From assembly GCF_035653355.1 (NCBI RefSeq), contig NZ_DASRBZ010000340.1:1-39790 (forward strand): 39,790 bases of DNA, in the 5' to 3' direction. A model generated the notes under the pieces. It worked only from the letters and a program-made list of their open reading frames with translations. It ran no database searches and was not told where the DNA came from. Positions 30,417 through 39,781 of the stretch are shown here, in pieces. A program made the position numbers and the translations under genes. How positions within the stretch are numbered: position 1 is the first letter of the stretch; every line of letters starts with the position of its first letter. The DNA comes from Mycobacterium sp. Lineage in GTDB: Bacteria > Actinomycetota > Actinomycetes > Mycobacteriales > Mycobacteriaceae.

Positions 30417-31226
30417 GTGACTGACACAGCGCTGCCAGTGGAGTTGCGCGAACGCGACCCGCGGTTCATTCGTACGATGCTGCCGACTCTGTGGCTCATG
30501 GCGAGCGTCTGGTTTCGCGCCGAGGTCGACGGCTTCGAGAATGTTCCGGACGAGCCGGTGCTGTTCGTCGGCAATCACAGCGGCGGCGGCGCGACGCCCG
30601 ACACCGCTATCTTCCTGCTTGCCTATAACACATACTTCACGGTCGAGGGCCGACCGCTGTACGCCTTGGCGCATGACATCCTCACCAGGACGCCAGGCTT
30701 TGGTCCGCTGATGCGCAAGCTTGGAGTCGTTCCCGCCCACCATTCCTGCGCCGAAAAAGTTTTCACCAGCGGCGGTTCGGCCCTGGTCTACCCTGGCGGC
30801 GACGTCGAGGCGCTGCGGCCTTGGCGTGACCGCAACAGAATTGTGTTCTCCGGCCGAAAGGGCTTCCTGCAGCTCGCGCACCGATGCAACGTCAAGATCG
30901 TGCCGGTCGTGGCCACCGGCGGTCACGACACCTTCTTTGTTCTCAACGACGGCCAGCGCACCGCCAAGGCGCTGCGATTGGACAGAGTGACGCGTGTCAA
31001 AACCCTACCCGTGACTCTCAGCATCCCGTGGGGGCTGTCACCTGTTCCACTGCCGTTTGTTCCGCTGCCGGCAAAGATCCGGGTGCAGGTGCTCGAACCG
31101 ATCGACCTGCGCGCTCGATTCGGCCAGGAGCCGGACTGGGATCACGCCTACGACTACTTCACCAGCGTCATGCAAGTTGGACTGTCACGGTTGGCCAGTA
31201 AAACGGTTGTTCCGATGATCAGGTAA
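30417..31226 (+). CDS. Lysophospholipid/diacylglycerol acyltransferase (PlsC-like)
   Basis: FVGNHSGG..PD, LVYPGG and GRKGF motifs. Confidence 0.85.
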   Translation: MTDTALPVELRERDPRFIRTMLPTLWLMASVWFRAEVDGFENVPDEPVLFVGNHSGGGATPDTAIFLLAYNTYFTVEGRPLYALAHDILTRTPGFGPLMRKLGVVPAHHSCAEKVFTSGGSALVYPGGDVEALRPWRDRNRIVFSGRKGFLQLAHRCNVKIVPVVATGGHDTFFVLNDGQRTAKALRLDRVTRVKTLPVTLSIPWGLSPVPLPFVPLPAKIRVQVLEPIDLRARFGQEPDWDHAYDYFTSVMQVGLSRLASKTVVPMIR

Positions 31227-31230
31227 GGCG

Positions 31231-31707
31231 ATGGCGCAAACTGTCACGGTCGCCAAGCGCATCCGCCGGCCGCTCGAAGAGGTGGGCGCCTTGGTGGCCG
31301 ATCCGCACCGGTTCATCCCTGCACTGGCCACAATGGGCCGCTGCGAATACATCGCCGACAGCGACCAAGGGCAGCTGTGGGACGTATTTCTGGTCAGCGG
31401 AACCCTGCACCTTGGCGGCCGGGTGCTGGTGACGCACAGCGAAAACGGCCGGCTGAGCTGGCGATCGCTGCGCGGAACCCGTCACACGTTGGAAGGCCGC
31501 GTCGAGCGCGACGGCGACGCATGCCGCATCACCTTGGCCTTGACCTATTCACTGACCGGCCTGGTGATCGCCCGGTTCAACGAACTTATCGGACGCGCCA
31601 TCGTGGCCCGCAACCTGGAAGCCGCCGCCGAGGAGCTGCGCCACCGACTTGAATTCGAGAACGGCAACGTGCCGATCGACGAGTGCCGCGATTCTCGCTC
31701 TTCGTAG
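31231..31707 (+). CDS. SRPBCC/polyketide cyclase-like (START-fold) protein
   Basis: Beta-strand pattern, 'VADPHRF' N-terminal helix and C-terminal helix typical of SRPBCC; starts 4 nt after the acyltransferase stop. Confidence 0.65.
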   Translation: MAQTVTVAKRIRRPLEEVGALVADPHRFIPALATMGRCEYIADSDQGQLWDVFLVSGTLHLGGRVLVTHSENGRLSWRSLRGTRHTLEGRVERDGDACRITLALTYSLTGLVIARFNELIGRAIVARNLEAAAEELRHRLEFENGNVPIDECRDSRSS

Positions 31708-31773
31708 CTGCGGGAGATCCGAAGACATCCCGGAAGGAGCGCCCAGCAACGTTGCCCTTAGAGCATGCCAGCC

Positions 31774-31878
31774 TGTAGGTTCCCAAACTGCGTGGCGGAC
31801 GCTGAGACCCCTACCTGCTACGTTGCAGATTTCTCATCAAATTGGCGGATGCGTTTTTCTCATCTTCGTGGCGGATCC
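31774..31878 (+). repeat. Left end: terminal inverted repeat plus three ~21-bp putative transposase-binding repeats
   Basis: TTCCCAAACTGCGTGGCGGAC (31780-800), TTTCTCATCAAATTGGCGGAT (31830-50) and TTTCTCATCTTCGTGGCGGAT (31856-76). Confidence 0.8.
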
Positions 31879-31937
31879 TAGATCCGTGCGGTTGTGCAAA
31901 TTTTGATTCCACAGAATGCGCGGACCTCCGTGGCCGT

Positions 31938-33374
31938 TCAAGCTCGACCGAGCGGAACTGGGTGGGGGTGGGAATCATCCCAGGGCTCACCAACAGTTGG
32001 CAGGATGCGGACAAGTACGTGCCGCGTGCCGGCCTCACCGACGTATTCGTCAGCTAATTGTCTGACGGCGGTGCGGGTCTTGGTCTCCATCGTGCCGACG
32101 ACGCCGTCTTTCGACTTGATCGTCACCTCGGTGGTCTCGTCAAGCTCGGCGAGACCGACGTAATCGTAGAGGAAGCCACGTAGGAATATGTTCGTGAAGT
32201 CCTCGCGTACGACTTTGATGATCTCGTCCCAGAACGCGTTGCGATCGGCTGCAAGGATGGCTTCGCTGGTCAATTGAGGATCGCTAGCCCGATGCGCGGC
32301 AATCATCGGAATGGGGTGCGCGAGCGTGACCCACACCGATGGGAACAGCGGTGCTACGGCCCGAAGAGATTGTTCGTCGTCTTCAGGAAGAACGAACCCG
32401 GCTTGGCGCTCGGGGAGCGTATCAATGAGTCGCTGTACATAGGCGTCGTGGTGCCAGCCGACCATGAACTCGAGGTGCTTCACGGCTACGCGGTTCTCGA
32501 ACAGGCTAGTGAATAGTCTCGCGATGCTCGTTGCATCGAGTTCTATGGCCGGAACAAGTTCAATGTGGCTACCTTCGATTCGAAGGTATGGTTCCTGAGT
32601 CAGCGACCCAAACACTTCCTTGTTGTCATCAGCGGCGTCATCGAGGGTGATTTCGCTACCTTGTAGCAAGCGGTTAATGAGGTCTGCCTTGATGCTGTGA
32701 CGTGCTTCTGCCCGCGCTTGGGCATCGTCTGCAGCTAGCAGGCTCCCACTGACGGAGCCCGCGAGCGCTTCACGAAGACTCTCAACCTTCTTGGCGGGCA
32801 AGCGATTACCGCGAGCGTCGACGACCGAATACTCCTCGTCATTCCACCAGACAACCCAGAAGTAGCCGCCGCCGTAGTACGCGGCCTCCACCCGGGAAGT
32901 ACTAGTACGGAATTGCTTCTCTACAGCTAAGCGAACTGTGTCCTCTGTTGCGATCTCACCTGCCTCGCACGCCCTCCGCAGGAGTTGCTTGCCGTCAAAG
33001 ATGAAGACGCCCTCGTCCTTTTTCTCAAGCGACGCGAAGCTGCCGCGGACGTTGCCGTTCACCCCATTTAAGGCGACGAGCATACCTACCGTTGCGGGCT
33101 TGTCGGCTCGCGCGAGAAAGAGCTTCCCAAGAAACTTCTGCCAGGTGGGCATGTCAACCGGGTCTGCATACGCTTTTGCCTCGCACAGAAGCGGTAACAC
33201 ATGCGATGCCCCCATTACTCCGACCTCGCGTGCACCGATGACGTCGAGCTCGTTACCGCCGGATCCAACGACGTTGGAGTACACGCTTCCGTAGCCCTGG
33301 CTCTCGAGCTCGGTATGAACGAGTGCCTCCAGCTGCGCACCCTTGTCTTTGGCGCTGACTCCCAAAACCATCAT
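31938..33374 (-). CDS. Mrr-like PD-(D/E)xK restriction endonuclease domain fused to an uncharacterised C-terminal region (478 aa)
   Basis: KGAQLEALV...GNELDVIG...LCEAKAY...WQKFLG motif pattern; GGAGGT RBS 6 nt before ATG 33374. Confidence 0.75.
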   Translation of the reverse strand: MMVLGVSAKDKGAQLEALVHTELESQGYGSVYSNVVGSGGNELDVIGAREVGVMGASHVLPLLCEAKAYADPVDMPTWQKFLGKLFLARADKPATVGMLVALNGVNGNVRGSFASLEKKDEGVFIFDGKQLLRRACEAGEIATEDTVRLAVEKQFRTSTSRVEAAYYGGGYFWVVWWNDEEYSVVDARGNRLPAKKVESLREALAGSVSGSLLAADDAQARAEARHSIKADLINRLLQGSEITLDDAADDNKEVFGSLTQEPYLRIEGSHIELVPAIELDATSIARLFTSLFENRVAVKHLEFMVGWHHDAYVQRLIDTLPERQAGFVLPEDDEQSLRAVAPLFPSVWVTLAHPIPMIAAHRASDPQLTSEAILAADRNAFWDEIIKVVREDFTNIFLRGFLYDYVGLAELDETTEVTIKSKDGVVGTMETKTRTAVRQLADEYVGEAGTRHVLVRILPTVGEPWDDSHPHPVPLGRA

Positions 33375-33726
33375 GGCGGCACCTCCGACTGCTACGGCAA
33401 AACGACGAGACAAAATGTGTCCGTAACAGGCATCACCCGAGCTGCTTACCGCAGCCTAGCCGACTGCTGCGGTGTTTCGACCGCCTGCTTAGGAGGCGCA
33501 CCGCTCGGCGGAGCTCTTTCGGCGTCAGCCGGGTGTGTTCTCGGCGGAAGTCCCGCTGTAGTTCATCGCCGGTTGGAATCCGTGGGCGTCAAGCCGACGA
33601 AACCAGATCGTCGGCGTGGTCGCACGGGAAGGAAGCTCGACGACGCTACGATCAGTCCCGTGAACTGGTAGCGACTCACGTCTGCCTCGGCTGGCCGGCG
33701 TTGGGAGTCGGTCGAAAGGACAACCC

Positions 33727-36700
33727 GTGGCAAGGTCGGGAGCAGAGCGGGCGCGCGGCACCGCATGGCGCATCTGGGATCTGCACGTCCATACGCCGGC
33801 ATCGATCGTTCAGGAGTACGGCGGCAACACCGATGAAGTCTGGTCAAGGTACCTCACTGAACTCGCGAACCTGCCCGAAGACATCGGTGTCATAGGGATC
33901 AATGACTACTGGTTCCTCGATGGGTATCGGCGTGTTTCCGAAGCTTGGCGGAGCGGTAGGTTGCCGAACTTGGACGCGATATTCCCGGTGGTTGAGATGC
34001 GCCTGGATCAGTTCGGCGGTACCGAAGGCAAACTGTCACGTGTCAATCTTCACGTCGTCTTCGATCCAGACCTCAACCCGGATGTCATCCAAGCTCAATT
34101 CCTGAATGCTCTCCAACCTAAGCTGAGACTCTCCCCTGAGCACGAGTCTTTGGGATGGCAGGGCGTCATCACCGAAGAATCGCTAGCTGACCTCGGGAGC
34201 AAGATCAAGGAATCTGTGCCCGAAGACCAACTCAGCAAGTACGGTTCCGACCTCCGCGAAGGGTTCAACAACCTCAACGTCTCACTCGGGGATGTTCAAA
34301 ATGTGCTCTCTGGCCAGTATTTCAAAGGGAGAGCGCTGCTGGGAGTCGGAAAGACTGAGTGGGCGGATATCAAGTGGACGGATCAATCGATCGCCGCAAA
34401 GAAAAATGTCATCAACTCCGCAGACCTCATCTTTACAGCATTTCAAGACTCCAACAGGTGGAAGGCGAATGTCGAGTCTCTACGCGCAAGCAAGGTGAAC
34501 GATCGTCTTCTGGACTGCAGCGACGCTCACTATTTCGCAGGTTCGGACCAGCACATGCGCCTGGGCGCCTGTCAAACCTGGATGAACACCGCTCCGACAC
34601 TCGCCGGACTGGCATACGCACTTGGAGAGTTCGACCGCCGAGTTTACGTAGGGCTTGAACCGGTCGCTCTCGCTCGAATCCGTAGGAACCCCGAACGATT
34701 CATATCGAAAGTGACGGTGAAGTCGGATAAGGAGGACCACGAACTCTTCGATTATGAGGTCCCGCTCAACGCCGGATTCATAGCGGTCGTCGGCAACAAG
34801 GGCCAGGGCAAATCTGCCCTGCTTGACTGCATAGCCCTTGCCGGCAACTCGTCACGCAACAGGGAATTTGCATTCCTCACACCGACGCGCTTCCTCAGCA
34901 CCACAAGTGTGAAGGTCGCCAGAGAGTACTACTCGGAGCTCGAGTGGGCTACTGGAACGACGCGTCGTGCTCAGCTTCCTGACGAACACGATCGGTCTGC
35001 CCCCGTGTATGTCGAATACCTGCCGCAGGCTTTCGTCGAACGTGTCTGCAACATCGACCCTGCCATCGGCGACGGGGACGAGTTCGAGCGCGAGCTACGC
35101 GTCGTTTTGTTCACGCACATTCGAGAAGAAGAGCGGTCAGGACAGAAGACGTTCGACGCGCTCCTCGCTCAAAAGACGCGCGCATCGCAGGACACCATCA
35201 ATCGCTTACGTGACGACCTCCGAGCAGTCATCAATTCCTACGTATCGATCGCCTCGTTCCGCGCGGAGAATCGGCTGCCTGAGGTCGAGGGGCGCCATTC
35301 GTTGAAGGAAAACGAGGTAGCAGGCGCCGAAGCGGCACTGGAATCCGCAAGGGCCGCGCTCGCTGAGATCGACTTGGCTAGTCGCGATGATGGTGAACTC
35401 GAAGCCCTTAAGCAAAGATCCGAGGAAATCGAATCTGCGCGAACCGAAGTGCTTAACAAGCGGACTGAGAACGAACAGCGTCAAGCACGGATTCGACAGG
35501 CTGTCAGCACGATGGAGACAATCGCTCAAGAAGCCGAGGTTCTCCGCACGGACGCTGCCGAGCTCAACGCCCGGGCAGCGGACTTCTTCACCGCCGATGG
35601 CGATCCGTATGTATCTGTGACCATCGACAACATTCGCTATGACGCCTGGCGCGCGACCGTTGAGGCAGACCTTGCTGCAGCAAGAGTCGAGCACGACGCG
35701 CTGGTTCGGGACCTCGAAACGCAAGAGGAAGCACGGCGCCGAAATGCAGAGTCGCTCGCTGCCGCTGATAGCGCACGCGAGCGTGCCCGTCAGCGAGTCC
35801 TCCAGTCAGAGGAACGCTTAGCAGCCTTAGTTGGGGACGAGAACGACGAGGAATCACTCAGCGGCCTTCGCGCGCTACGCGCTCGTATCACCGAGGCTCC
35901 CGCGGAGATGGAGAGCCTGCGCCAGGAGGTCATCGAGCACGCCGGCCGCATACACAGGGCACTCCGCGCCCAACTCGACGCAGTAGAAGACCTTTATGCA
36001 CCTGCGTCTGAATTCATTGCGCAAGCCGAGGTCGTTCGGAATGCAGGCCTCGAGTTCAACGCAGAGCTTCGTATGCTGCCGACTTGGCGGAGTATTCCAA
36101 GGAGCCTCGACGGTCGGCGCAACGGCGACTTCACTGACTGGCTCGCTGAGTTGCCCCAGCGGATTGAGGACACGAGTTGGGACCAGCTCTCCCCGCAGCT
36201 CTTGGAGGCCCTCGTCCGCTTAGAACACGAACGAGGGGAGCCTGACGATCCGTTCAGGAATCCCGCGCACGCCCTGCGCGGGACCACGGACCTGGACGAA
36301 TTCTTAATGAGCATGTTCGACCTGTCATGGCTAGAAGTTCGCTTCGGTCTGACTGGCGACGGTCTACCGCTATCCCAGCTGTCTCCGGGCCAGCGCGGGC
36401 TCGTCCTCGCGCTGTTTTACCTCGTAGTTGACCGTCGTACCACGCCACTGCTTCTCGATCAGCCGGAGGAGAACCTCGACAACGAGACCATTGCATCGAA
36501 GCTTGTTCCCGCGATACACGAGGCCGCCGGGCGGCGTCAGACCATCGTGGTCACGCACAACGCAAACCTGGCCATTGTCGGCGATGCTGATCAGATCATC
36601 CACTGCCAATTGCGAGATCTGCGGTTTACCGTCAGCAGCGGAAGCATCGCTGAGCTCGACGTCGCACAATTCGCGTTGAACGTCTTGGAAGGGACCAAGC

Positions 36701-36753
36701 CTGCGTTCGACAACCGCCGTCATAAGTACGAAGCGTTCCCTGAACTCACATGA
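33727..36753 (+). CDS. PHP domain + coiled-coil ABC ATPase (Ppl-like / TrlF-family), putative anti-phage protein
   Basis: PHP motifs WDLHVHTP, INDY and CSDAH; Walker A GNKGQGKS (34792); long coiled coil; LSPGQ; LLLDQPEENLDN; VTHNAN; AAGGA RBS. Confidence 0.85.
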   Translation: MARSGAERARGTAWRIWDLHVHTPASIVQEYGGNTDEVWSRYLTELANLPEDIGVIGINDYWFLDGYRRVSEAWRSGRLPNLDAIFPVVEMRLDQFGGTEGKLSRVNLHVVFDPDLNPDVIQAQFLNALQPKLRLSPEHESLGWQGVITEESLADLGSKIKESVPEDQLSKYGSDLREGFNNLNVSLGDVQNVLSGQYFKGRALLGVGKTEWADIKWTDQSIAAKKNVINSADLIFTAFQDSNRWKANVESLRASKVNDRLLDCSDAHYFAGSDQHMRLGACQTWMNTAPTLAGLAYALGEFDRRVYVGLEPVALARIRRNPERFISKVTVKSDKEDHELFDYEVPLNAGFIAVVGNKGQGKSALLDCIALAGNSSRNREFAFLTPTRFLSTTSVKVAREYYSELEWATGTTRRAQLPDEHDRSAPVYVEYLPQAFVERVCNIDPAIGDGDEFERELRVVLFTHIREEERSGQKTFDALLAQKTRASQDTINRLRDDLRAVINSYVSIASFRAENRLPEVEGRHSLKENEVAGAEAALESARAALAEIDLASRDDGELEALKQRSEEIESARTEVLNKRTENEQRQARIRQAVSTMETIAQEAEVLRTDAAELNARAADFFTADGDPYVSVTIDNIRYDAWRATVEADLAAARVEHDALVRDLETQEEARRRNAESLAAADSARERARQRVLQSEERLAALVGDENDEESLSGLRALRARITEAPAEMESLRQEVIEHAGRIHRALRAQLDAVEDLYAPASEFIAQAEVVRNAGLEFNAELRMLPTWRSIPRSLDGRRNGDFTDWLAELPQRIEDTSWDQLSPQLLEALVRLEHERGEPDDPFRNPAHALRGTTDLDEFLMSMFDLSWLEVRFGLTGDGLPLSQLSPGQRGLVLALFYLVVDRRTTPLLLDQPEENLDNETIASKLVPAIHEAAGRRQTIVVTHNANLAIVGDADQIIHCQLRDLRFTVSSGSIAELDVAQFALNVLEGTKPAFDNRRHKYEAFPELT

Positions 36754-37096
36754 GTCTCGCTTTCGTGTATCCGTGAGCCTCATGTCCAGTGGCACTACGC
36801 GGCCAAGCTTGAATCATTCCCGCCGCAAGTTTCCCTCGACAGTTCGTAATAGTTGCGTAGTCCGTAGAACTCGTCGGCGATATTCATGGCTACCTAGTGG
36901 TCGCGGCACCATGCCGATAACTGCGTAATATGTCGTCGCCGTCGTGCCGGTCGCTGGTGACATCGTCCCCAGAATGACGTGTCTGCCCGTCGGTGCCCAT
37001 GCCGCGCCTCCTAAACGGGATGCCGAATTGCTCGGCCGGCGCCGCAGTAATCACCAATCGCAGCCATCCGCTGTAAGGGATCGTTACAGACGTAAT

Positions 37097-37316
37097 GACC
37101 TCGTCAAGCATGACCAATCCACGACCGTGGGAACCATCACCGAAGCGGGCTTGCAGTCTGTGACAGGCGATTCGGCCCGGATCCTGGTGAGTGTATCGGT
37201 GAAGAGAACAACTGCAGTTTCACCCGCGCCACGGCAAAATAGCTTCCGGATGCGTATCGATGTGAAAACGGGTCGGCGATGGGGCGAAGGTGTCCAACGT
37301 GGAATTCATATCGTGA
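37097..37316 (+). pseudogene. 3' fragment of an Mce-associated membrane protein (Mam-type), frameshifted
   Basis: Reads DLVKHDQSTTVGTITEAGLQSVTGDSARILVSVSVK..FRMRIDV, then shifts +1 in the A-run at 37265-68 to KRVGDGAKVSNVEFIS*. No 5' half or TM segment. Confidence 0.75.
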
Positions 37317-37650
37317 AAACCCTGGTGCCATAGCGGGATTGGCCCAGTAACAGCGCGAAGCCGAAGAACCGGCCCGTCGAGGTTCTAGCCGCGGCAGCGC
37401 CAGCGGCAGTTTCTCGTGGACAACTGCGGTTATGCATGCCAGTAACAGCGGAGTCTAGTCCTAAACCGCTCCCTACCCAGAAACTCGCGCCTGCTGAACA
37501 CGCACCGTGACCGCTAACAGCTGTGAGTTAGCAACCGTTACAGGATATTTCGTCATACCAGCCGGGTAGTTGGCATTGCGCGCGGCCCTATGTTTTGTGG
37601 CGTCAACGCGCATGCAGCCAACGCCAGAGATCCGAGTAGTGAGGCAGCCG

Positions 37651-37914
37651 TCAGCGCCTGTAAACGTCCGCGCGATGATCGACACGCTGAATCAGCACCA
37701 GTGAGTGATCCTCGTCGATCCGGTATAGCAGGCGGTACGGGCCGCGCCGGGCGCTATGCAGCCCGGTCAGTTCACGCCTCAGCGGCTTGCCGACGCGGCG
37801 CGGTGCGTGCGCCAGCTCGCCGAACGCGAACTCAATCACGGCCGCCAGCACCCGCGGCGGCAACTTGTGGAGGTCACGCCGCGCGATGGCGGTGAACCGA
37901 ACCGTGTAACCCAA
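37651..37914 (-). CDS. relG: RelE-family toxin (RelG/RelE2-like)
   Basis: YTVRFTAIARRDLHKLPPR..VGKPLRREL..SARRGPYRLLYRID..DHRADVYRR, very similar to Rv2866 as recalled. Confidence 0.88.
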   Translation of the reverse strand: MGYTVRFTAIARRDLHKLPPRVLAAVIEFAFGELAHAPRRVGKPLRRELTGLHSARRGPYRLLYRIDEDHSLVLIQRVDHRADVYRR

Positions 37915-37922
37915 CGGCGGCG

Positions 37923-38204
37923 TCAGTCGGCACGCCGAGGCACGCCGAACTCGGCGCGAATTTCATCCTCGCCGTACGTGCGCCCAGCGGCAATGTCGGC
38001 ATCGGCCTCGGCGATTGATTCCTTTATCCCTGGCCGAGAAAGCCAGTACAGCGTCTCTTGGAGCGATTCCCATTCCTCGACGCCGACGAGCACCGCCGCC
38101 GGCGCACCGTTTTTGGTGATCGTGATCTGGTCCTGCGTTTGGGCGACCGCATCGACGTACTCGTTAAGCTTGTCTTTAATCTTCGAAATCGGCAGTATCC
38201 GCAC
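37923..38204 (-). CDS. relF: Phd/YefM-family antitoxin (RelF/RelB2-like)
   Basis: MRILPISKIKDKLNEYVDAV..ITITKNGAPAAVLV..WESLQETLYWL, very similar to Rv2865 as recalled; lies upstream of the toxin. Confidence 0.9.
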   Translation of the reverse strand: MRILPISKIKDKLNEYVDAVAQTQDQITITKNGAPAAVLVGVEEWESLQETLYWLSRPGIKESIAEADADIAAGRTYGEDEIRAEFGVPRRAD

Positions 38205-38210
38205 GCCACC

Positions 38211-38230
38211 ATGTTAGCCTAAATATAGGC
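38211..38230 (-). promoter_or_regulatory. Leaderless relFG promoter and autoregulatory palindrome
   Basis: -10 TAACAT (38216-38211) lies 6 nt before the GTG start, next to the palindrome GCCTA-AATA-TAGGC (38217-30). Confidence 0.55.
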
Positions 38231-38426
38231 CAGCGACAGGCGCTAATTAAGGCCCCATAATGTTACGACACCACCGACCGACTTGGCCTTACAAGTAGTC
38301 ACCGGCCACAGCAGCATCTTCTAACTGTCGGTGATGGGGAAGCCGCAACCGCAACCTCGAGTGAATCGCCGAGGCTCGCCCCTGATCCATACCTAGCCGA
38401 GCTAATCAGTTTCCGGTCTTTGTGAC

Positions 38427-38486
38427 GGATCCGCCACCTTTACGTCGCGAAGTCTGAAATTCCGCCACTTAAAAATGGAACCTACA
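38427..38486 (-). repeat. Right end: terminal inverted repeat plus two putative transposase-binding repeats
   Basis: Reverse complement reads TGTAGGTTCCATTTTTAAGTGGCGGA...GTGGCGGATCC. TCCGCCAC cores are at 38430-37 and 38461-68, and GGATCCGCCAC (38427-37) is the exact inverse of 31868-78. Confidence 0.8.
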
Positions 38487-38522
38487 CCAGCGCCGCCCTC
38501 AGGTGATCGTTTGATCCGCTGG

Positions 38523-38574
38523 TTGACAGTCTCGCGCTCATGTCGTATCAATAAGACATGACCGTCGGTTTGTC
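38523..38574 (+). promoter_or_regulatory. cyp130 promoter (probably leaderless) with two GACA-N12-TGTC operators
   Basis: TTGACA (38523-28), 17 nt, TATCAA, then ATG 38558. Palindromes at 38525-44 and 38555-74. Confidence 0.55.
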
Positions 38575-39781
38575 TCATCAGCCTCGGTTTCAACTTGCTA
38601 CTGCCGAGACCTGGGCCAATCCGTGGCCGATGTACAAAGCGTTGCGCGACCACGACCCGGTGCATCACGTCGTTCCGCAAGACCGGCCCGAGCAGGACTA
38701 CTACGTGCTGTCTAGGCACGCCGATATCTGGGGGGCCGCCCGCGACCACGACACGTTCTCGTCGGCGCAGGGCTTGACCGTCAACTACGGTGAGCTGGAA
38801 ATGATTGGGCTGCAAGACAACCCACCGATGGTCATGCAGGACCCACCGGTGCACACGGAGTTTCGCAAGCTGGTGTCACGTGGTTTCACCCCGCGCCAGG
38901 TCGAGGCGGTGGAGCCCAAGGTCCGCGAGTTCGTTGTCGAGCGGATCGAACGGTTGCGCGCCAACGGCGGCGGCGACATTGTCGCTGAACTGTTCAAGCC
39001 GCTGCCGTCGATGGTCGTCGCGCACTACCTGGGCGTGCCCGAAGAGGACCGCACCCAGTTCGACGGCTGGACGCAGGCGATCGTCGCGGCCAACACCACC
39101 GAGGGCGGCGTCGCCACCGCCGGCGACGCGGTCGGCTCGATGATGGCCTACTTCGCCGAGCTCATCGAGCGTCGCCGCAGCGAACCGGAGGACGACACGA
39201 TCTCGCATCTGGTGGCGGCCGGCGTCGGCGCCGACGGCGATGTCGCCGGCACGTTATCGATACTCGCGTTCACGTTCACCATGGTCACCGGCGGCAACGA
39301 CACCACAACTGGAATGCTCGGCGGCTCAATGCCTTTGCTGCACGAGCGCCCGGATCAGCGGCAGCTGCTCGTTGACAATCCCGACCTGATCCCCGACGCC
39401 GTCGACGAGCTGCTGCGTCTGACCTCGCCGGTGCAGGGGCTCGCGCGCACCACCACCCGCGACGCGACGATCGGCGACACCACCGTGCCGGCCGGCCGCA
39501 AAGTGCTGCTGTTGTACGGATCCGGAAACCGGGATGAACGCCAATACGGTGCTGACGCCGGCGAACTCGACGTGACCAGGTGTCCGCGCAACATCCTGAC
39601 GTTCAGCCACGGCGCCCACCATTGCCTGGGCGCGGCGGCGGCGCGGATGCAGTCGCGGGTCGCGCTGACCGAGCTCCTAACCCGCTGCCCAAACTTCGAG
39701 GTCGACGAGTCCGGGATCGTGTGGGCCGGCGGCAGTTACGTGCGACGTCCCCTGTCGGTGCCCGTCACGGTGACGGCGTGA
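38558..39781 (+). CDS. cyp130: Cytochrome P450 CYP130 (Rv1256c ortholog)
   Basis: I-helix TGGNDTT, ExxR (ELLR) and heme ligand FSHGAHHCLG; synteny. Confidence 0.93.
   Translation: MTVGLSHQPRFQLATAETWANPWPMYKALRDHDPVHHVVPQDRPEQDYYVLSRHADIWGAARDHDTFSSAQGLTVNYGELEMIGLQDNPPMVMQDPPVHTEFRKLVSRGFTPRQVEAVEPKVREFVVERIERLRANGGGDIVAELFKPLPSMVVAHYLGVPEEDRTQFDGWTQAIVAANTTEGGVATAGDAVGSMMAYFAELIERRRSEPEDDTISHLVAAGVGADGDVAGTLSILAFTFTMVTGGNDTTTGMLGGSMPLLHERPDQRQLLVDNPDLIPDAVDELLRLTSPVQGLARTTTRDATIGDTTVPAGRKVLLLYGSGNRDERQYGADAGELDVTRCPRNILTFSHGAHHCLGAAAARMQSRVALTELLTRCPNFEVDESGIVWAGGSYVRRPLSVPVTVTA

Follow-up and report, generated by a model that had tools for sequence, protein, structure and literature searches.

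A transposase-less Tn7-family element at a recurrent cyp130 promoter site in Mycobacterium and its probable targeting by a short TniQ supplied in trans

Tn7 is directed to glmS by TnsD, which binds about 36 to 60 bp from the transposon end; its insertions keep a fixed distance and orientation, turn the closely spaced end towards the target, make a 5-bp duplication and accumulate in tandem. Targeting by Tn5053 and Tn402, the res-site hunters, depends on bound resolvase. Tn5053 and Tn402 are TniQ elements that aim at resolvase sites (PMC11406308), and Tn6022, of the AbaR group, uses a TniQ of 369 amino acids (aa) that needs a separate DNA-binding partner, TnsF, for insertion into comM (PMC10293859, PMC11014353). 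A small TniQ has been described as a hallmark of partner-dependent targeting, with transcription factors acting in trans named as a possible partner; many short TniQs had no partner, and the accessible text gives no example of a transcription-factor partner (Faure 2023, PMC10293859). A further group, Tn7-like clade 2 (TnsA profile NF033179, TnsA_like_Actin), is dominated by Actinobacteria and is experimentally uncharacterised (Benler et al. 2021, PMC8649781). Here we describe a non-autonomous member of this catalogued clade, 6,713 bp long, which lies directly before the cytochrome P450 gene cyp130 in a 39,790-nucleotide contig of Mycobacterium sp. (NZ_DASRBZ010000340.1, assembly GCF_035653355.1; the whole contig is called the window). 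Its place of insertion is a recurrent, oriented attachment site, and a short TniQ probably selects that site.

The element and its relatives share with clade 2 the TnsABC and TniQ/TnsD proteins, the arrays of TnsB sites and a defence-rich cargo. The survey behind that clade required tnsB, so that copies like the one in the window fall outside it, and its accessible text names no mycobacterial attachment site; the entries listed in its supplement hold about 100 mentions each of Mycobacterium and Mycolicibacterium, two rows being clade-2 tnsB loci (PMC8649781). Among the entries listed in the supplement of PMC10293859 are a single locus from Mycobacterium and a tniQ that shares an operon with a LysR gene. 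Attachment sites at dnaB, argP/lysE and cyp130 were not found described in the literature searched, which covered subscription papers poorly and included the accessible parts of bioRxiv 2025.07.27.667033 and 2025.08.27.672191, PMC11014353 and PMC11406308; mycobacterial elements or sites may be tabulated in the supplements of PMC8649781, PMC10293859 or the bioRxiv papers.

The initial annotation had proposed a cargo transposon with TG...CA ends, and both ends are borne out: a terminal TGT lies at 31774 on the forward strand and at 38486 on the reverse strand. The end motif occurs twice in the window and in none of 100 shuffles of it; the two ends are the only exact matches in the 4.47-Mb genome, with no further copy. 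With one mismatch allowed, it was present in 68 of 400 same-genus genomes, against 1 for a reversed control. The two ends had been called inverted repeats with identical spacing. This holds for the first 26 bp and fails beyond them, where the internal sites are asymmetric: GTGGCGGA-type sites are spaced at +19, +69 and +95 in the left end and closely packed in the right end (+19, a degenerate one, +50 and an inverted copy). Such asymmetry, spaced on the left and close on the right, is the Tn7 pattern, and the element combines it with TGT...ACA termini. The left end is at most 86% alike to the left ends of relatives, and the right end is collinear with, and 72% alike to, that of L213, an autonomous element at cyp130 on a metagenome contig. 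Base composition also sets the element apart, with 58.8% GC against 65.8% for the remaining window and 13 CTAG sites against 16 in the other 33 kb. The earlier counts, namely the 13 CTAG sites, the GC fractions of the lines at 32521 (0.50) and 29641 (0.73) and the match of the flanking hexamers CCAGCC and CCAGCG at 5 of 6 positions, were all correct.

Many cognate right ends have tnsA, tnsB, tnsC and one or two tniQ/tnsD genes directly inside them (tns operons within cognate ends in L074, L084, L086, L213, L265-L269, L350 and L352). In L213, TnsA scores 228 bits against NF033179 (cut-off 110), and tnsB, tnsC and two tniQ genes stand alongside, just inside the right end; this locus was the one real element among 116 stretches examined from a metagenome pattern scan that was mostly noise (at least 117 stretches). 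No cas effector genes or guide array were noticed in the open reading frame (ORF) lists of L213, L350 and L352, which do not reach the left parts of these elements and whose neighbours were not all profile-scanned. Perfect 5-bp duplications accompany 5 of 20 other end pairings, several of which are guesses across tandem arrays; they flank G111, G091, G208, G363 and one G291 element, and none reaches 6 bp. On plasmid NZ_CP076857.1, family ends enclose 188 kb, about half of the plasmid (202258-390490; L312, L313, L318), with an AGCGG duplication, a left end 78% like that of the window, a right end of the window subtype and a TnsB 78% identical to that of L213. Transposition machinery of the family thus appears to travel on a plasmid that can be mobilised. 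The second tnsD of this element is broken by IS256. Short-repeat stutter stands beside some ends (flanks of L036, L067, L108, L112, L130 and L298), possibly from repeated insertion and excision. Other ends lie in or beside ParB-like genes whose ParB_N match is under the cut-off (L086:10058, L095:8868, L320:12126), perhaps a route into plasmids or conjugative elements.

In the window, the element lacks tnsA, tnsB, tnsC and tniQ/tnsD. Profile scans confirmed that no ORF inside it encodes a transposase, integrase or resolvase, and tblastn with TnsA and TnsC, 36 TnsB and 81 TniQ/TnsD relatives returned only two 29-residue matches in the element (E 0.005-0.009). Mobilisation in trans, as initially proposed, is supported by the cognate ends that surround complete tnsABC-tniQ operons in relatives. 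In the own genome, tblastn and home-made profiles left TnsB unmatched and gave two weak TniQ-profile matches (E 8e-5 and 2e-3), the stronger on a contig holding an argP-like gene; these searches replaced TniQ and Mu-transpos_C family searches, which were unreliable in this genome, the controls being unmatched too. A second occurrence of the element, which lends mobilisation indirect support, comes from X2, a soil metagenome run of a separate study, in which a 16.2-kb contig starts to match exactly at the terminal TGT and covers 31774-33451 and 33535-36904 with 115 and 189 differences (93-94% identity). The flank upstream of this match is unrelated to the window flank and marks another locus; therefore the left end and both large cargo genes of the element occur elsewhere. 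No contig with the empty site (31773 joined to 38487) was present in run X1, which may be the source sample, or in run X2, and none of the 61 genomes searched for it was of the same species (best cyp130 identity 83%).

The initial annotation did not see that the insertion place is an attachment site. Ends immediately upstream of the cyp130 promoter occur in 4 of 401 genomes (0 for the control) and in L213, which has the same 71-bp gap to the cyp130 ATG as the window. Among 32 cyp130 promoters, the 24 that are equally spaced conserve TTGACA-N12-TGTCGTA and AGACATG...TGTCTCA, and nothing upstream of these; the two motifs hold two palindromes of the form GACA-N12-TGTC (Table 1). In all seven elements found at cyp130, which differ in cargo and flanks, the right end is proximal and lies 38, 38, 40, 43, 39, 40 and 40 bp from the first intact GACA-N12-TGTC. 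Fixed distance and orientation from a recognised site are features of the Tn7 family. In G444, palindrome 1 is degenerate, and the right end has moved 30 bp closer, to 40 bp from palindrome 2 and 8 bp from TTGACA; this shift ties insertion to the palindrome rather than to TTGACA or the start codon. Perfect duplications at the site differ (GTTTT in G208, CCACC in G363), which argues for separate insertion events. Insertion spares both palindromes and TTGACA, so this would be a safe site. Left ends downstream of the neighbouring flavin adenine dinucleotide (FAD) oxidase gene also occur in G029, G276 and G286. Where the window contig stops, relatives have a tetR gene (cyp130-tetR order in L213 and L061), and all 5 genomes inspected for a tetR orthologue had one. 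We provisionally call these host genes cyp130 and Rv1255c, after the initial annotation and PMC4482099. The pair is a putative operon (PMC4482099). A simple promoter scan did not call the cyp130 promoter. The interval before the element is very variable between species: the acyltransferase and SRPBCC genes between the FAD oxidase gene and the left end (30417-31707) occur in 0 of 29 relative loci (1.5 kb before cyp130). Among 22 other right-end flanks, GACA-N10-14-TGTC was found in one (G200, N11, 71 bp off; not counted). This right end (L331:13043), of the window subtype, lies near another tetR, with TTGACA at 46 and 69 bp and a stuttered flank, and its palindrome is perhaps another operator target.

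Unlike glmS, the cyp130 site is a promoter palindrome instead of a coding 3' end, and it tracks a short TniQ instead of the long TnsD. L213 encodes a 709-aa long TnsD and, convergent with it, a short TniQ of the type of about 350-375 aa. For the latter, 26 relatives share 59-91% identity, and the 25 that are full-length measure 371-436 aa. A search of 399 genomes with it found five places in four genomes (G273 was left unscored here and in the search with long TnsD relatives), and both new loci with a readable right end, G452:C221 (71%) and G444 (43-45%), are at cyp130. The contigs of G143 and G452:C128 break before the right end, and in G482 the matching protein is a long form of 720 aa, around which 38 kb of sequence showed no end. 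Across the three autonomous cyp130 elements, identities are 61-68% for TnsB, 43-71% for the short TniQ and 31-36% for the long TnsD. The short TniQs of these three group in a single clade (99% FastTree support) that nests next to the long form of G482, as though derived from such a protein by truncation, and their long TnsDs fall into three clades; the trees are from FastTree only, with rows below 300 aa left out and trimming to 720 or 330 aa. Short TniQs match Pfam PF06527 alone, and most long ones add C-terminal helix-turn-helix (HTH) matches. We also considered the L213-type long TnsD as the selector and rejected it: its six closest relatives (41-48%) have no link to cyp130, and two are near dnaB. 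On this comparison of sequences, the short TniQ, not the long TnsD, probably selects the cyp130 site. Unlike the TniQ of Tn6022, the short TniQs of the cyp130 type have no TnsF-like or other operon partner after them in the ORF lists of L213, L272, L350 and L352, where the gene converges on tnsD. A conserved CTACTAGTAG-centred palindrome precedes xre and the second tniQ (L213:1400-1790, L272, L350, L351, L084, L086) and is likely the operator of the element-encoded Xre regulator.

Table 1. Positions of the element, its cargo and the neighbouring cyp130 promoter in the window, and argP-bearing elements at lysE in other loci
Feature	Position	Strand	Remark
Whole element, TGT...ACA	31774..38486	.	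6713 bp; left breakpoint is the start of the X2 contig match
Left flank, CCAGC and one extra C	31768..31773	+	Likely left copy of the 5-bp duplication, one base out of register
Left end with TGT terminus and three predicted TnsB sites, spaced apart	31774..31875	+	Sites 31780-31799, 31830-31849, 31856-31875
491-aa protein with N-terminal Mrr_cat restriction-endonuclease domain	31938..33413	-	Pfam PF04471, 25 bits (cut-off 21)
1008-aa TrlF-family AAA-like ATPase	33727..36753	+	NF045780, 531 bits (cut-off 350)
Cargo interval with no recognisable gene	36754..37650	.	Likeness to the X2 copy ends at 36904
ParE/RelE-type toxin of a type II toxin-antitoxin pair	37651..37914	-	PF05016, 42.6 bits
Phd/YefM antitoxin	37923..38204	-	PF02604, 79.7 bits; TIGR01552
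Right end, faces target; terminal TGT and predicted TnsB sites	38410..38486	-	Sites 38480-38461, 38460-38441 (degenerate), 38449-38430
Inverted predicted TnsB site in right end	38410-38429
Right flank, CCAGC	38487..38491	+	Right copy of the likely 5-bp target duplication
Palindrome 1, GACA-N12-TGTC, overlaps TTGACA at 38523	38525..38544	.	38 bp from right end; likely recognised site
Palindrome 2, GACA-N12-TGTC, over cyp130 start codon	38555..38574	.	30 bp after palindrome 1
Host cytochrome P450, cyp130 orthologue	38558..39781	+	PF00067; contig stops 9 bp later
lysE elements that break argP and carry their own argP copy	L056, L067:4454-8671, L265, L266, L342:12193-13152

Taken together, these observations suggest that the element was probably put at the cyp130-tetR promoter by TnsABC and a short TniQ supplied in trans. 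By analogy with Tn7, TnsA and TnsB would cut the element out for cut-and-paste transposition, TnsC would set the orientation and the distance of about 40 bp from a TniQ placed at the palindrome, and the elements would spread on plasmids. The short TniQ itself would be positioned at the palindrome, perhaps by docking on the host TetR that is predicted to bind there. This more delicate proposal, in which the palindrome would serve as operator for TetR and TniQ would be recruited by it, is our leading mechanism, with a little under an even chance. Its closest precedent is the targeting of resolvase sites by Tn5053 and Tn402, which lack TnsA and aim at res sites on plasmids, whereas the cyp130 elements aim at a chromosomal promoter and have TnsA (above cut-off in L213).

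A comparable arrangement occurs before lysE. The loci examined, excluding metagenome noise, hold 135 distinct ends, 74 of them right ends. Of these, 22 closely follow the dnaB stop codon, 6 precede lysE by about 110 bp and 6 precede cyp130; a further 15 adjoin the end of another element, 23 lie at other places and 2 have too little flank. This set was enriched by targeted searches and gives no frequencies, some of the 23 are misfiled internal sites, and the search pattern missed the G444 and G196 ends. At lysE, 6 of 7 right ends lie 37-40 bp from a LysR-type palindrome of the CATTA-N7-TAATG type, and the seventh lies at 56 bp, behind short repeats. Insertion there usually disrupts the 5' end of argP. 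Four autonomous elements at the lysE site or in tandem to it (L265, L266, L299, L303) share a second clade of short TniQs; in L265 and L266 an argP copy stands right behind the short tniQ, and in two copies that are non-autonomous argP is joined to the right end and starts within it. We tentatively suggest, at somewhat less than even confidence, that mycobacterial Tn7-family elements have twice shortened TnsD into a TniQ adaptor that uses a host transcription factor and inserts about 40 bp away, the factor being TetR at cyp130 and the LysR-type ArgP/LysG, its gene sometimes captured, at lysE.

Several observations weigh against these proposals. Carrying argP may just as well make good the loss of the gene broken by insertion, and some elements with short TniQs of the lysE clade (L301, L310, L339) could not be placed at lysE. 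At cyp130, the autonomous elements with a readable end number only three, and the TniQ of G444 is only 43% identical; G143 has a short TniQ 75% identical, yet its cyp130 site is empty, and G452 has a second short-TniQ copy on another contig. The missing HTH match is weak evidence, since the long TnsD of L213 also lacks one in Pfam. The predicted fold of the short TniQ has low confidence (predicted local distance difference test score of 52) and gives no structural support; in a search of the PDB, TniQ matches were weak. GACA-N12-TGTC occurs 60 times in the own genome, so these 8 bases alone cannot give specificity; no literature showing TetR binding to it was found. Insertion on the far side of the symmetric palindrome was not seen, which calls for an extra source of asymmetry or for selection. 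No tns genes were found in the own genome (assembly 91% complete, 689 contigs). Finally, the duplication CCAGC is out of register by one base, owing to the extra C on the left; given this and the lack of an empty site, the two ends could stem from two events.

The same element and short TniQ could act through another kind of recognition, with TniQ reading the palindrome itself, for instance as a dimer, or being recruited by another host protein such as RNA polymerase. TniQ of type I-F systems is a dimer. A symmetric site suits a dimer, palindrome 1 overlaps TTGACA, the short TniQ of about 350 aa is highly conserved up to its C-terminal helices, and no partner gene is adjacent; but the whole protein aligns with the N-terminal 350 or so residues common to the long TnsDs, and the G444 end follows palindrome 2 rather than TTGACA, which makes the -35 box a less likely signal. 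We regard this as a real possibility while leaning against it. It is quite unlikely that the cyp130 promoter is read directly by the long TnsD that each element encodes, in the way of Tn7 TnsD at glmS, and that the short TniQ is incidental. The conserved promoter bases, 36-60 bp from the end, do lie in the binding range of TnsD, and in Tn7 the usual mode is that a long TnsD reads the site itself (PMC11406308). Yet the long TnsDs are 31-36% identical and fall into three clades, one of them sister to dnaB-sited proteins, so that three convergences would be needed, and the short TniQ predicted the cyp130 site in 2 of 2 new readable loci. The Xre protein encoded beside the short tniQ makes a very unlikely DNA-binding partner: its gene is 92-94% identical among L213, G143 and G452, but homologues of Xre also stand next to the second tniQ in elements inserted at dnaB, at lysE and elsewhere, and the conserved palindrome ahead of xre and tniQ has CTACTAGTAG at its centre and differs from GACA-N12-TGTC. 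Xre thus looks like a regulator of the element's own genes.

Other alternatives concern the element rather than its target. The copy in the window could be a relic that no longer moves, or could have arisen as a hybrid from tandem insertions, its two ends coming from different events. The shifted duplication would fit, as would the X2 copy, which shares only 31774-36904, the 15 of 74 right ends that abut an end of another element and the 15 of 20 other pairings that lack a perfect duplication. We consider this unlikely, since neither the ends nor any of the four ORFs is damaged, five bases of the flanks agree once shifted by one position, and the two end subtypes occur together, with a perfect duplication, on the plasmid element described above. 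Duplications made by Tn552 are 6 bp long. For the TG...CA ends and the hexamer match at 5 of 6 positions, the initial annotation had pointed to Mu, Tn7, Tn5053, Tn552 and IS21 and to the 6-bp duplications of Tn552, and a Tn552-, IS21- or Mu-like element inserting at random would account for them; but the cognate elements encode TnsA and TniQ instead of a two-gene transposase without either, they make 5-bp duplications, and their right ends cluster at dnaB, lysE and cyp130, which leaves this idea hardly any probability.

The 3' end of dnaB is the commonest site of the family (L039, L040, L060, L064, L084, L267-L269, L279-L286, L297, L298, L302, L308) and looks like a direct analogue of the glmS site of Tn7. 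The right end there mostly lies 14-27 bp past the stop codon, and only GACA is common to the dnaB and cyp130 flanks, at a similar distance. End subfamilies at dnaB have TGTAGGTT in common, differ in the internal repeat and are stacked in tandem, which suggests orthogonal transposases. In G161, a 435-bp element like a miniature inverted-repeat transposable element, with two ends and no gene, stands right after dnaB (L068:5565-5999). Islands at dnaB have a gene for a GH6 cellulase after their left end (L068:1220-2266, L075:18272-19327). The tubercle bacillus has dnaB, darTG and celA1 in that order, so that darTG may sit in a relic of the element family. The dnaB 3' end of the own genome (G000:C471:746-1622) has no end motif and is followed, by eye, by a PIN-like toxin-antitoxin pair.

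The cargo in the window comprises four ORFs (Table 1). The Mrr_cat protein has 56 homologues and belongs to an actinobacterial family. The large ATPase matches positions 1-944 of the 944 of the NF045780 profile and is thus a TrlF-family protein; it resembles TrlF and, distantly, the Ppl anti-phage protein in a PHP-like N-terminal motif and an SMC-like ATPase. Assignment to Ppl proper was rejected, as NF042955 gives 97.6 bits, far under its cut-off of 1000 (PADLOC Ppl, E 3e-17). No paper on TrlF was found in our literature search. A defence function is predicted for the Mrr-type nuclease, the TrlF-family ATPase and the RelBE-type pair. The initial annotation had seen in the element a shuttle for anti-phage genes, which does not stand for the family: the ORFs of other non-autonomous elements at cyp130 are, by eye, mostly metabolic or regulatory, and the family is no dedicated defence shuttle. 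CBASS-like (cyclic-oligonucleotide-based anti-phage signalling system) cargo, with genes for a SAVED-domain protein and a SMODS nucleotidyltransferase, occurs within a tandem element array of G291 (L070:6890-9424).

Defence-like cargo on a Tn7-like element is nothing unusual; the interest lies in how the element is targeted. The target and the selector of mycobacterial Tn7-family elements are new with respect to the literature searched, and dnaB, argP/lysE and cyp130 are three candidate attachment sites for an uncharacterised actinobacterial clade. They explain variable islands at these loci in mycobacteria, missed by tnsB-based surveys. With the short-TniQ clade and the palindrome defined and a shift of 30 bp occurring in nature, the idea of a partner in trans (Faure 2023) becomes directly testable, and the system could yield a tool for site-specific integration in non-pathogenic mycobacteria. 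If the proposed mechanism is true, this would be a natural case of transposition guided by a transcription factor, from which a hidden population of cargo elements that lack a transposase, among them the one in the window, would benefit.

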